DNA of 64,000 nucleotides. It comes from Escherichia coli (lineage in GTDB: Bacteria; Pseudomonadota; Gammaproteobacteria; Enterobacterales; Enterobacteriaceae). Positions 33,949 through 43,826 of the stretch are shown here, piece by piece. The stretch lies in the NCBI RefSeq assembly GCF_024502345.1, contig NZ_JALDNN010000002.1, one strand, 5' to 3'. The translations under genes were made by a program, and so were the position numbers. The notes beneath the pieces are model-generated. The model saw nothing but the letters and a program-made list of their open reading frames with translations, searched no databases and was not told the origin of the DNA. Numbering within the stretch: the first letter of the stretch is position 1; each line of letters starts with the position of its first letter.

Positions 33949-34768
33949 GGCACTGTTGCAAATAGTCGGTGGTGATAAACTTATCATCCCCTTTTGCTGA
34001 TGGAGCTGCACATGAACCCATTCAAAGGCCGGCATTTTCAGCGTGACATCATTCTGTGGGCCGTACGCTGGTACTGTAAATACGGCATCAGTTACCGTGA
34101 GCTGCAGGAGATGCTGGCTGAACGCGGAGTGAATGTCGATCACTCCACGATTTACCGCTGGGTTCAGCGTTATGCGCCTGAAATGGAAAAACGGCTGCGC
34201 TGGTACTGGCGTAACCCTTCCGATCTTTGCCCGTGGCACATGGATGAAACCTACGTGAAGGTCAATGGCCGCTGGGCGTATCTGTACCGGGCCGTCGACA
34301 GCCGGGGCCGCACTGTCGATTTTTATCTCTCCTCCCGTCGTAACAGCAAAGCTGCATACCGGTTTCTGGGTAAAATCCTCAACAACGTGAAGAAGTGGCA
34401 GATCCCGCGATTCATCAACACGGATAAAGCGCCCGCCTATGGTCGCGCGCTTGCTCTGCTCAAACGCGAAGGCCGGTGCCCGTCTGACGTTGAACACCGA
34501 CAGATTAAGTACCGGAACAACGTGATTGAATGCGATCATGGCAAACTGAAACGGATAATCGGCGCCACGCTGGGATTTAAATCCATGAAGACGGCTTACG
34601 CCACCATCAAAGGTATTGAGGTGATGCGTGCACTACGCAAAGGCCAGGCCTCAGCATTTTATTATGGTGATCCCCTGGGCGAAATGCGCCTGGTAAGCAG
34701 AGTTTTTGAAATGTAAGGCCTTTGAATAAGACAAAAGGCTGCCTCATCGCTAACTTTGCAACAGTGCC
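33949..34768 (+). mobile_element. IS26 copy 2 (820 bp), no TSD
   Basis: 14-bp IRs; flanks tcaattag vs gctttttt. Confidence 0.97.
34012..34716 (+). CDS. tnpA: IS26 transposase Tnp26
   Basis: Same sequence as copy 1 in the track. Confidence 0.97.
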   Translation: MNPFKGRHFQRDIILWAVRWYCKYGISYRELQEMLAERGVNVDHSTIYRWVQRYAPEMEKRLRWYWRNPSDLCPWHMDETYVKVNGRWAYLYRAVDSRGRTVDFYLSSRRNSKAAYRFLGKILNNVKKWQIPRFINTDKAPAYGRALALLKREGRCPSDVEHRQIKYRNNVIECDHGKLKRIIGATLGFKSMKTAYATIKGIEVMRALRKGQASAFYYGDPLGEMRLVSRVFEM

Positions 34769-35022
34769 GCTTTTTTTAATATGTCCCGTTCGTCGGTAAC
34801 CCGCTTCAGCTCTTTCTGGAGACGGCGGATCTCGGCCTGAGCATCTGACTGTTCTTTATTAATGGAAGGATCCGGATCGTACTTCTTTATCCAGGCGTAA
34901 AGGCTGTGGGTGGTGATATCGAGACGTGTTGCAACGCTGGCAACAGAATAACCGCGATCAACAACCTGTTTGACTGCTTCAGTTTTAAACTCTTCGGGAT
35001 GACGCTTACCGCTCATGGGCAC
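34769..35022 (-). pseudogene. IS3-family OrfA, 3'-truncated
   Basis: MPMSGKRHPEEFKTEAVKQVVDRGYSVASVATRLDITTHSLYAWIKKYDPD... ends inside the IS26 IR. Confidence 0.8.
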
Positions 35023-35079
35023 CTCTCTTTAAGCCATCTTAAATGACTCGGAGGTGTCTGTTAAACCCGTGGCGATTCA
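34769..35079 (-). mobile_element. IS3-family fragment (left IR plus 5' part of orfA), truncated by IS26
   Basis: IR revcomp tgaatcgccacgggtttaacagacacctccgag resembles the IR of fragment X at 17530; OrfA-like N-terminus. Confidence 0.75.
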
Positions 35080-35330
35080 AGAGAAAGAACATTCTGAATT
35101 CATCCGCCAGTTCATCCGGGAACGGCTCTGGCAGGTAGTGCCCGCAGTCATACATGACCGACCTGATAACGTCTGGCCTTCTTCGCTCAGTAACGTTTTG
35201 TGTCCAGGACGTCAGTCTTCACAGCTGTCAAATCAACGCTATTTCATAAGGCGGCTCACGTTTTTATGTCATGAGCCGCGCTTTTCCGGCTGGAACGTTC
35301 CACCCACTCGGTCACTGTGATTTAATATGC

Positions 35331-35342
35331 TAAACCGGTTTA
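35331..35342. promoter_or_regulatory. candidate ScrR operator palindrome TAAACCGGTTTA upstream of scrK
   Basis: Perfect 12-bp palindrome about 30 bp upstream of scrK. Confidence 0.6.
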
Positions 35343-35370
35343 ATTAAGTTTAGCTTTGGAGGGTTTTAGC

Positions 35371-36294
35371 ATGAATGCAAAAGTTTGGGTTCTGGGCGAC
35401 GCGGTGGTGGACCTGCTGCCGGAGAGCGAAGGGCGCCTGCTGCAGTGCCCTGGAGGCGCGCCGGCTAACGTGGCGGTAGGGGTTGCCCGCCTTGGCGGCA
35501 ACAGCGGATTTATCGGCCGCGTCGGCGGTGACCCGTTTGGCCGCTACATGCGTCATACCCTGCAACAGGAGCAGGTCGACGTCAGCCATATGTATCTCGA
35601 CGATCAGCACCGCACGTCCACTGTGGTCGTCGACCTTGACGACCAGGGGGAACGCACCTTTACCTTTATGGTACGCCCCAGCGCTGACCTGTTCCTGGCT
35701 GAAGAAGACCTGCCACAGTTTGCCGCCGGACAGTGGTTGCACATCTGCTCCATCGCGCTCAGCGCCGAGCCCAGCCGCAGTGCTACCTTCGCGGCTATGG
35801 AGAACATCAAACGTGCCGGTGGCCGGGTGAGCTTTGACCCTAATATCCGCCTGGATCTCTGGCAAGATCAGAACCTGTTGCACGCCTGTCTCGACCGCGC
35901 CCTGCGTCTGGCGAACGTGGTGAAACTGTCCGAAGAAGAGCTGATACTCATCAGCGGGAGTAATGATATCGCGCAGGGGATCGCCAGCATCACTGAGCGT
36001 TATCAGCCTGAATTACTGCTGGTGACTCAGGGTAAAGCGGGCGTCATCGCCGCATTCCAGCAGCAGTTTATCCATTTCAGCGCTAAACCGGTTGTCAGCG
36101 TGGATACCACCGGTGCGGGCGATGCGTTTGTCGCCGGACTGCTTGCCAGCCTTGCTGCCAACGGGATGCCGGCGGATATCAATGCCCTGGAGCCAACGCT
36201 CGCTCTGGCGCAAACCTGCGGTGCCCTGGCAACCCTGGCGAAAGGCGCGATGACTGCCCTGCCATACCAGCGCGATCTACACCGCCAGATTTGA
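35371..36294 (+). CDS. scrK: fructokinase ScrK
   Basis: 307 aa from ATG 35371 with GGAGGG RBS; ribokinase/pfkB-family motifs (...VDTTGAGDAFVAG...). Confidence 0.95.
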   Translation: MNAKVWVLGDAVVDLLPESEGRLLQCPGGAPANVAVGVARLGGNSGFIGRVGGDPFGRYMRHTLQQEQVDVSHMYLDDQHRTSTVVVDLDDQGERTFTFMVRPSADLFLAEEDLPQFAAGQWLHICSIALSAEPSRSATFAAMENIKRAGGRVSFDPNIRLDLWQDQNLLHACLDRALRLANVVKLSEEELILISGSNDIAQGIASITERYQPELLLVTQGKAGVIAAFQQQFIHFSAKPVVSVDTTGAGDAFVAGLLASLAANGMPADINALEPTLALAQTCGALATLAKGAMTALPYQRDLHRQI

Positions 36295-36344
36295 TCCTAA
36301 ATACCGTCGTACGCGGTCCACTTTGTTGCATCCATCACACTTAT

Positions 36345-41919: not shown

Positions 41920-42302
41920 TAACTGAGTATTTTTGAATAGCGACGCTGGATGCCGATTGGTCTGAACGGCCCGGCGATCGCCGGGCATACCATTGGCGCC
42001 GGCATCGTGCTGGTAACGACCATATTAGGGCGTTTGAGCAGTTGCCTGGCCTCACGCAGGGAGACTGGATTAACTGACCGCTGACAAAATGCCTGACAAT
42101 GACAGTCCGTTTTGTGCCAGATATAGTCATTCACACCCTGAGAGTTACACTTTTAAGTGATTCAGGGTATGCGCTTATTGGTTACGAATATTGTGCCAGA
42201 ATCATGTGATTCGATGATTGCCGCTTTGCTTTCGAGCCAGTAAGTGCTCCACGTTCGCTAACGAATACTCAGGGCATGCAGAAAAACGGTAATGACTCCA
42301 AC

Positions 42303-42806
42303 TTATTGATAGTGTTTTATGTTCAGATAATGCCCGATGACTTTGTCATGCAGCTCCACCGATTTTGAGAACGACAGCGACTTCCGTCCCAGCCGTGCCA
42401 GGTGCTGCCTCAGATTCAGGTTATGCCGCTCAATTCGCTGCGTATATCGCTTGCTGATTACGTGCAGCTTTCCCTTCAGGCGGGATTCATACAGCGGCCA
42501 GCCATCCGTCATCCATATCACCACGTCAAAGGGTGACAGCAGGCTCATAAGACGCCCCAGCGTCGCCATAGTGCGTTCACCGAATACGTGCGCAACAACC
42601 GTCTTCCGGAGCCTGTCATACGCGTAAAACAGCCAGCGCTGGCGCGATTTAGCCCCGACGTATCCCCACTGTTCGTCCATTTCCGCGCAGACGATGACGT
42701 CACTGCCCGGCTGTATGCGCGAGGTTACCGACTGCGGCCTGAGTTTTTTAAATGGCGGAAAATCGTGTTGAGGCCAACGCCCATAATGCGGGCGGTTGCC
42801 CGGCAT
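42303..42806 (-). CDS. insB: IS1 InsB
   Basis: 167-aa ORF. Confidence 0.9.
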
Positions 42807-43000
42807 CCAACGCCATTCATGGCCATATCAATGATTTTCTGGTGCGTACCGGGTTGAGAAGCGGTGTAAGTGAACTGCAGTTGCCATGTTTTACGGCAGT
42901 GAGAGCAGAGATAGCGCTGATGTCCGGCGGTGCTTTTGCCGTTACGCACCACCCCGTCAGTAGCTGAACAGGAGGGACAGCTGATAGAAACAGAAGCCAC
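42725..43000 (-). CDS. insA: IS1 InsA
   Basis: 91-aa [25 protein letters not shown]... Confidence 0.95.
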
Positions 43001-43073
43001 TGGAGCACCTCAAAAACACCATCATACACTAAATCAGTAAGTTGGCAGCATCACCCCCGGTAATGACTCCAAC

Positions 43074-43577
43074 TTATTGATAGTGTTTTATGTTCAGATA
43101 ATGCCCGATGACTTTGTCATGCAGCTCCACCGATTTTGAGAACGACAGCGACTTCCGTCCCAGCCGTGCCAGGTGCTGCCTCAGATTCAGGTTATGCCGC
43201 TCAATTCGCTGCGTATATCGCTTGCTGATTACGTGCAGCTTTCCCTTCAGGCGGGATTCATACAGCGGCCAGCCATCCGTCATCCATATCACCACGTCAA
43301 AGGGTGACAGCAGGCTCATAAGACGCCCCAGCGTCGCCATAGTGCGTTCACCGAATACGTGCGCAACAACCGTCTTCCGGAGCCTGTCATACGCGTAAAA
43401 CAGCCAGCGCTGGCGCGATTTAGCCCCGACGTATCCCCACTGTTCGTCCATTTCCGCGCAGACGATGACGTCACTGCCCGGCTGTATGCGCGAGGTTACC
43501 GACTGCGGCCTGAGTTTTTTAAATGGCGGAAAATCGTGTTGAGGCCAACGCCCATAATGCGGGCGGTTGCCCGGCAT
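43074..43577 (-). CDS. insB: IS1 InsB
   Basis: 167-aa ORF identical to copy c in the track. Confidence 0.9.
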
Positions 43578-43771
43578 CCAACGCCATTCATGGCCATATC
43601 AATGATTTTCTGGTGCGTACCGGGTTGAGAAGCGGTGTAAGTGAACTGCAGTTGCCATGTTTTACGGCAGTGAGAGCAGAGATAGCGCTGATGTCCGGCA
43701 GTGCTTTTGCCGTTACGCACCACCCCGTCAGTAGCTGAACAGGAGGGACAGCTGATAGAAACAGAAGCCAC
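43496..43771 (-). CDS. insA: IS1 InsA
   Basis: 91-aa ORF identical to copy c. Confidence 0.95.
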
Positions 43772-43826
43772 TGGAGCACCTCAAAAACACCATCATACAC
43801 TAAATCAGTAAGTTGGCAGCATCACC

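Follow-up and report, generated by a model that had tools for sequence, protein, structure and literature searches.

The sucrose (scr) regulon of enterobacteria is a well-described system, its operators, regulator and pathway having been characterised since 1988-1993. One closely related copy is that of the Salmonella plasmid pUR400 (Schmid, Lengeler and co-workers), whose porin ScrY is represented by the crystal chain 1A0S; another is the chromosomal locus of Klebsiella pneumoniae, and scr loci of a Citrobacter freundii-like type are often found on plasmids (PMC11251922). The cloned scr locus alone suffices for sucrose use by Escherichia coli (PMC11251922). In the passages of PMC11251922 that cite Cowan 1991 and Jahreis & Lengeler 1993, two inverted repeats flank the -35 and -10 elements of scrY, with mutational evidence for binding by the repressor ScrR; fructose or fructose-1-phosphate releases ScrR, and a CRP site lies further upstream. 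The part of PMC4521459 that cites the same two studies places both the scrK and the scrY promoter under ScrR control.

We analysed a 64,000-nucleotide stretch of E. coli contig NZ_JALDNN010000002.1 (hereafter the window), in which an scr cluster lies among insertion sequences (ISs). The region considered, 33949-43826, runs exactly from the outer end of an IS26 to the outer end of the second of two IS1 copies. We are highly confident that it represents an intact, plasmid-borne enterobacterial sucrose regulon of the phosphotransferase system (PTS) type (scrK; scrYABR), which is chimeric and which, in this window, is not a transposon. As scrKYABR with three repressor sites among ISs, the locus is an already-known system in a known kind of context; what we add is limited to its chimeric make-up, an overlooked IS110 stub and an account of how the IS1 pair arose. 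Gene order, protein lengths and the three-operator layout are those of pUR400. The K. pneumoniae locus (L074) has the same organisation and all three operator cores are identical, but its DNA is only about 70-82% identical (78% for the ScrK and 89% for the ScrY protein), and it is chromosomal and lacks the IS frame.

The five genes follow each other on the + strand in the order scrK, scrY, scrA, scrB and scrR, with no internal stops in the open reading frames (ORFs), and the lengths of all five products equal those of their relatives (Table 1). ScrK, ScrA, ScrB and ScrR score above curated NCBIfam cut-offs and match their models end to end; the model matched by ScrR (TIGR02417) is that of the fructose/sucrose repressor subfamily of the LacI/GalR family. 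For ScrY there is no sucrose-porin model in NCBIfam and the maltoporin match fell under its cut-off, but its residues 93-505 cover the full 413-residue pUR400 ScrY chain 1A0S, with 90.8% identity (4e-261). RefSeq annotation of identical DNA in other plasmids gives the same gene set and order, with no scr pseudogenes. An earlier reading of the window made from the letters alone (the sequence-only reading) had described the cluster as intact, with overlapping or closely spaced genes, and had named inactivating mutations as one finding that would overturn it. Our results bear this description out: the scrA and scrB genes share one base (TAATG), and all five ORFs are full length and free of internal stops. 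ScrA has no IIA domain and thus needs the IIA of its host, a dependence established for the ScrA of pUR400 and of Klebsiella. In most RefSeq (PGAP) records ScrK is named aminoimidazole riboside kinase although it passes the fructokinase equivalog cut-off (501 versus 450 bits), which is a quirk of naming.

To place the cluster among known alleles we compared it with the Klebsiella quasipneumoniae plasmid pKPC_CAV2013 (L003), the chromosome of E. coli AH04 (L004) and L081, the scr allele carried by an E. coli chromosomal island that is associated with an integrase. The first served as a stand-in for pUR400 DNA, since its ScrY is identical to the pUR400 crystal chain at 412 of 413 residues. From 34766 to about 35650 the window is at least 99.5% identical to L003, and L081 is either 95% identical or lacks the sequence (35081-35196 is absent from it). 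Between about 35650 and 40171 identity to L003 drops to 78-87%, and only three differences from L081 occur in 4.5 kb. From 40157 to 42287 the window is again at least 99.5% identical to L003 and 90-96% identical to L081, where the sequence is present at all. Because these identity blocks switch parent along the segment, the cluster reads as a two-parent chimera: by sequence, its ends and scrR are of the pUR400 type and its central 4.5 kb matches the chromosomal-island allele, with crossovers in scrK (35650-35684) and scrB (40157-40171). Thus the comparison with pUR400-type regulons proposed in the sequence-only reading holds for the outer blocks, including a ScrR that is 100% identical to that of L003, but near-identity does not extend along the whole cluster with L003 as the proxy; the divergent centre runs from within scrK (its 3' two-thirds) through the scrY promoter, scrY and scrA to the end of the 5' half of scrB. 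The L081 allele probably corresponds to the C. freundii-like type of PMC11251922, and the centre of the window would then be of that type; the upstream region, 5' scrK, 3' scrB, scrR and the downstream flank set the window apart from it.

Other chimeras of the same two parents are found in L004 and in locus L082. The ScrA of L004 is identical to that of the window and its ScrY is 99.6% identical. Among the crossovers of L004 and L082, one maps to 36341-36359, within the invariant upstream scrY operator, the sole stretch of perfect identity in that intergenic region. The island-type ScrK protein was found in more than 7,000 blocks of an assembly collection, and its neighbours were nearly always YagK/YfjJ_C, HATPase_c_4 and Mac (L081 and L083-L092); this steady company of the same island genes indicates that this scr allele itself travels on a genomic island.

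We propose that the cluster sits in a fixed frame, from an IS3-family stub on the left to an IS110-family stub on the right, that is common to pUR400-type copies. Homologous recombination with a second scr allele, that of the E. coli chromosomal island, would have replaced the central 4.5 kb, and the chimera would then have spread among plasmids by IS26-associated rearrangements. In this copy, a second IS1 would have inserted at a distance of 3 bp from the existing one, with the loss of about 2 kb of adjoining sequence. The chimeric make-up suggests that plasmid catabolic clusters keep recombining with chromosomal alleles inside a fixed IS frame, a tidy and unsurprising case of modular evolution. 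One could go further and see in the frame a stable chassis whose interior is repeatedly swapped for other scr alleles, and suppose that this chimera, which joins a pUR400-type repressor to the porin, transporter and promoter of the other allele, spread by outdoing both parents in regulation or performance. Crossover pairs of at least three kinds (the window, L004/L082 and L003) and the crossover inside the upstream scrY operator bear on this idea; we nevertheless regard it as unlikely.

Several published plasmids of E. coli and Citrobacter carry the 7.2-kb segment 35081-42287 at 100% identity, and the cluster is thus already in the databases. In 47 plasmid records the best match to the segment is at least 99% identical, and 49 records carry at least 80% of it. 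The frame of IS3 stub, scr and IS110 stub is also present in L003 (91% identical overall) and L004 (96%), in both of which two directly oriented IS26 copies bracket it. The cluster had been called mobilisable in the sequence-only reading. That the module moves is shown by its distribution: it is present in 49 plasmids of several genera and in chromosomes of E. coli, in some cases with direct IS26 copies on either side. The structure seen in the window gives the claim no support, since the flanking ISs are unlike each other, the IS26 copies are inverted and target duplications are missing. No IS pair in this window makes a transposon around scr.

An active composite transposon with IS26 or IS1 at its ends, able to move scr as a unit, is an unlikely reading of the module as it stands in the window. 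The presence of ISs on both sides, the relatives that hold the module between two direct IS26 copies, and its occurrence in E. coli chromosomes as well as in many plasmids from several genera all speak for such a unit, and the arrangement recalls the IS26 pseudo-compound transposons or translocatable units in that an IS26 adjoins the module. However, the two sides bear different ISs. Only one IS26 is adjacent (33949, + orientation), and the other two in the window, at 3331 and 52420 (about 30 kb and 18 kb away), are both in - orientation and hence inverted relative to it. None of the three window copies has an 8-bp target-site duplication, all flanking 8-mers being different; those of the adjacent copy are TCAATTAG and GCTTTTTT. 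Missing duplications weigh little, as IS26 units often lack them after conservative or homologous events. A Tn9-like arrangement with IS1 on both sides of scr was not found either: the two adjacent copies, 3 bp apart, both lie to the right of scrR, and the other IS1-like sequences of the window are more than 18 kb off. Moreover, the closest relatives share sequence with the window on the right well past IS1, as far as ISKpn26 and mobI, so IS1 is not the boundary of a unit. The cluster illustrates catabolic cargo within the IS26-rich mosaics of resistance plasmids. The whole mosaic of the window was not found in PLSDB, where no single plasmid covers its flanks (best coverage 41% and 66%).

If the regulon acts as described in the literature on pUR400 and Klebsiella, from which the following steps are taken rather than from this DNA, ScrY would pass sucrose through the outer membrane, and ScrA (IIBC, together with the host IIA) would phosphorylate and import it as sucrose-6-phosphate. 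ScrB would cleave this into glucose-6-phosphate and fructose, and ScrK would phosphorylate the fructose set free. ScrR would bind the three copies of a palindrome (16-bp consensus GCTAAACCGGTTTAGC) and repress the scrK and scrY promoters until released by fructose or fructose-1-phosphate, and a CRP site upstream of the scrY promoter would add catabolite control. A decaying remnant, inactive as the chimeric ScrK or ScrB, or the mixed promoter and repressor, fail together, is very unlikely. Both crossovers do fall within genes (scrK and scrB), and the repressor and the scrY promoter stem from different parents. On the other hand, the five ORFs are full length, four of them above sucrose-specific cut-offs and the fifth covering the whole crystal chain; the operator cores are the same in both parents; RefSeq marks no scr gene as a pseudogene; and the chimeric segment recurs at 100% identity in several published plasmids of E. 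coli and Citrobacter, which a dead end would hardly do. Under the reading as an intact regulon, the plasmid should render its E. coli host sucrose-positive, which may confuse biochemical identification and may help the host in niches with plant-derived or dietary sucrose. Its importance beyond annotation is slight.

The 12-bp palindrome TAAACCGGTTTA has exactly three matches in the 64 kb (35331-35342, 36345-36356 and 36403-36414) and none across 100 dinucleotide-preserving shuffles. As noticed in the sequence-only reading, it occurs once upstream of scrK and twice upstream of scrY. There the sites were offered as candidate ScrR operators, a term that undersells them, as they correspond to the published operators, and nothing about them is new. 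The published downstream scrY operator overlaps the expected start site (PMC11251922), as does the one in the window with respect to its predicted start. Scanning one genome per species, we detected the operator pair in 75 species, and it lies between scrK and scrY in about 30 species of Enterobacterales. We then chose loci on the scrY operator pair alone, blind to the scrK site; a scrK site with at most one mismatch was present 36-50 bp before the ATG in 30 of the 31 evaluable scr loci (about 28 of 29 if only independent loci are counted). The sequence around and further upstream of this site cannot be aligned between genera, so its retention amid unalignable sequence gives independent support to the scrK operator. 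Judged from the letters, inverted-repeat operators at the scrY promoter together with a separate scrK site are shared by about 30 species. That the palindromes serve another regulator, for instance Cra/FruR with its similar box TGAAACGTTTCA, or that they are mere chance or structural repeats, is very unlikely. In favour of such readings, Cra and ScrR form sister groups in the LacI family and recognise related motifs (PMC4052901), transcription of scrA and scrB falls on Cra deletion in Enterobacter aerogenes (PMC4521459), and Paenibacillaceae have the palindrome pair too, there in front of an ABC transporter operon that is unrelated. Against them, chance predicts zero matches, the sites follow the scr promoters in about 30 enterobacterial species, the mutational evidence reported in the above passages of PMC11251922 assigns the scrY repeats to ScrR, and the core is unlike the Cra box at its first base and its centre (CCGG versus ACGT).

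Allowing two mismatches adds three operator-like sites in the window (30725, 36084 and 39268), about two being expected by chance; those within scrK (36084) and scrA (39268) are therefore unsupported as extra operators. A conserved operator half-site, AGTTTAGC, lies at 35347-35354, 5 bp after the scrK operator, in most loci of Klebsiella, Enterobacter and Kosakonia. It overlaps the predicted -10 element of scrK and could be an auxiliary half-site or merely reflect conservation of the promoter. The same palindrome (TTAAACCGGTTTAA) is present in pairs in genomes of Paenibacillus, Cohnella and Bacillus (L007-L014, L020, L021 and about 30 other Paenibacillaceae loci), and in L008 three copies (5164-5345) precede an ABC-transporter operon of the SBP_bac_5 kind that has no relation to sucrose genes.

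The promoters were read from the multi-species alignment, in which conserved aTT.c. and TA..AT columns lie between the two scrY operators. Upstream of them, the columns TTTG...TCACA are at least 90% conserved over 33 loci and correspond to the CRP-like site, TGTTGCATCCATCACA, with a perfect right half-site and a left half-site matching at 3 of 5 positions; the CRP site is described as poorly conserved between species (PMC11251922). A terminator scan detected a hairpin after scrK, and a hairpin-forming stretch is aligned at the equivalent place in loci of Klebsiella, Enterobacter and Kluyvera. This fits scrK being a separate transcription unit (PMC11251922).

Several points count against this account of the locus. 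The operators were matched to the published sites via their layout, as described in the cited parts of PMC11251922 and PMC4521459. A distance of 58 bp (about 5.5 helical turns) separates the centres of the two scrY operators, a spacing that does not favour simple in-phase looping. The promoter hexamers and starts are a putative reading of the alignment: the scrK and scrY promoters were absent from the output of a simple sigma-70 scan, whose matches in the region were at chance level (4 versus 4.1 expected). In a scan of species representatives for the donor, the best hit was Enterobacter soli with about 95% identity in the central block, and the outer blocks had no close match. ScrR binding, transcription and growth on sucrose are predictions for this DNA, and the activity of the chimeric ScrK and ScrB is assumed from their full-length profile matches.

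Table 1. Features of the scr cluster and its flanks, in window coordinates
Feature	Position	Strand	Description
IS26, complete	33949-34768	+	820 bp; inverted repeats GGCACTGTTGCAAA at both ends
IS3-family stub	34769-35080	-	312 bp; left inverted repeat (TGAATCGCCACGG... on the - strand) and first ~82 transposase codons; cut by IS26
pUR400-type stretch upstream of scrK	35081-35330		99-100% identical to L003 and L004; holds predicted scrK -35
Predicted scrK promoter	-35 TTAATA 35322-35327; -10 TAAGTT 35345-35350		putative, read from the multi-species alignment
scrK operator	35331-35342		16-bp context GCTAAACCGGTTTAAT; between predicted -35 and -10
scrK	35371-36294	+	ATP-dependent fructokinase, 307 aa; NCBIfam NF006957, 501 bits versus cut-off 450, positions 2-302 of 302
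Terminator-like hairpin after scrK	36303-36317	+	ACCGTCGTACGCGGT, then CCACTTTGTT; terminator scan
CRP-like site	36324-36339		centre ~71.5 bp upstream of predicted scrY start; exact position putative
Upstream scrY operator	36345-36356		16-bp context ATTAAACCGGTTTAGC; just upstream of predicted -35
Predicted scrY promoter	36367-36396	+	-35 TTTCAA 36367-36372; 18-nt spacer; -10 TAACAT 36391-36396; putative
Downstream scrY operator	36403-36414		16-bp context ACTAAACCGGTTTAGT, perfect palindrome; overlaps predicted transcription start
scrY	36460-37977	+	sucrose-specific outer-membrane porin, 505 aa; crystal-chain alignment
scrA	38115-39485	+	sucrose PTS enzyme IIBC, 456 aa; TIGR01996, 654 bits versus 559, positions 2-460 of 461
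scrB	39485-40885	+	sucrose-6-phosphate hydrolase, 466 aa; TIGR01322, 592 bits versus 356
scrR	40915-41919	+	LacI-family repressor, 334 aa; TIGR02417, 466 bits versus 389.55, positions 1-327 of 327
pUR400-type stretch downstream of scrR	41920-42099		shared at 100% identity with L003 and L004; L081 and L082 lack it beyond 41939-41952
IS110-family stub	42100-42287	+	188 bp, non-coding left end; cut by IS1 66 bp before the transposase start
IS1 copy 1	42288-43055	-	768 bp; ancestral copy of the plasmid lineage; L001 and L002 have an identical copy with this left junction
Spacer CCC	43056-43058		first 3 bp of the ancestral right flank CCCCGTC...
IS1 copy 2	43059-43826	-	768 bp, one base different from copy 1; far end abuts the interior of the IS5-family element
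Truncated ISKpn26-like IS5-family element	43827-44809	-	NCBIfam transpos_IS5_4, E 8e-106; 99% identical to ISKpn26 of L001

Both flanks were as the sequence-only reading had described them, with IS26 and an IS3-family fragment on one side and an IS1 dimer on the other; the truncated IS5-family element, the IS110-family stub and the chimeric make-up had been overlooked. The IS26 next to the module is identical to that of pCE1537-E, and its gene is annotated as IS26 transposase in relatives. On the left it truncates an unrelated ORF, on the right the IS3-family element. What is left of the latter matches positions 1-82 of 369 of the NCBIfam model transpos_IS3 (E 1e-16), and a stub with the identical inner end is present in L003 and L004.

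On the right, 42100-42287 matches hundreds of plasmids at about 90-99% identity. In locus L080 the matching stretch lies directly upstream of a complete IS110-family transposase gene, and in L004 the sequence of the stub runs on into a fragment of an IS110 transposase. NCBIfam now calls the transposase family of this stub "RNA-guided", and in IS110-family elements the non-coding end encodes a guide (bridge) RNA. Searching the whole window and the stretch 41900-42300 against Rfam yielded no match in the scr region or in the IS110 stub.

The two IS1 copies are arranged head to tail in the same orientation. The second stands where L001 and L002 keep 2,063 bp, comprising the end of ISKpn26, a DsbA-family gene, a fragment of a DUF4113 gene and a hypothetical gene. 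An IS1 that inserted 3 bp away from the resident copy, followed by an IS1-mediated adjacent deletion of about 2 kb, would account for this. We rejected an assembly artefact as the source of the pair, as the copies differ by one base and similar pairs are present in 17 other plasmid records; the head-to-tail pairs in these records, at least 17, have short spacers of differing length. For the exact junction between IS1 and ISKpn26, PLSDB returned only one match, at 96%, and the arrangement itself is not in that collection.

Elsewhere in the window, the further IS26 copies occupy 3331-4150 and 52420-53239, and the further IS1-like copies 12564-13331 and 16469-17007 (the latter of about 540 bp). 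Rfam group II intron models match at 10650-10875 (D1-D4) and 63117-63203 (domain 5/6), and the matching plasmids annotate group II intron reverse transcriptases. Finally, an ALIL pseudoknot was detected at 59124-59240 (RF01497, 93 bits), which Rfam assigns to the cis-regulatory class.

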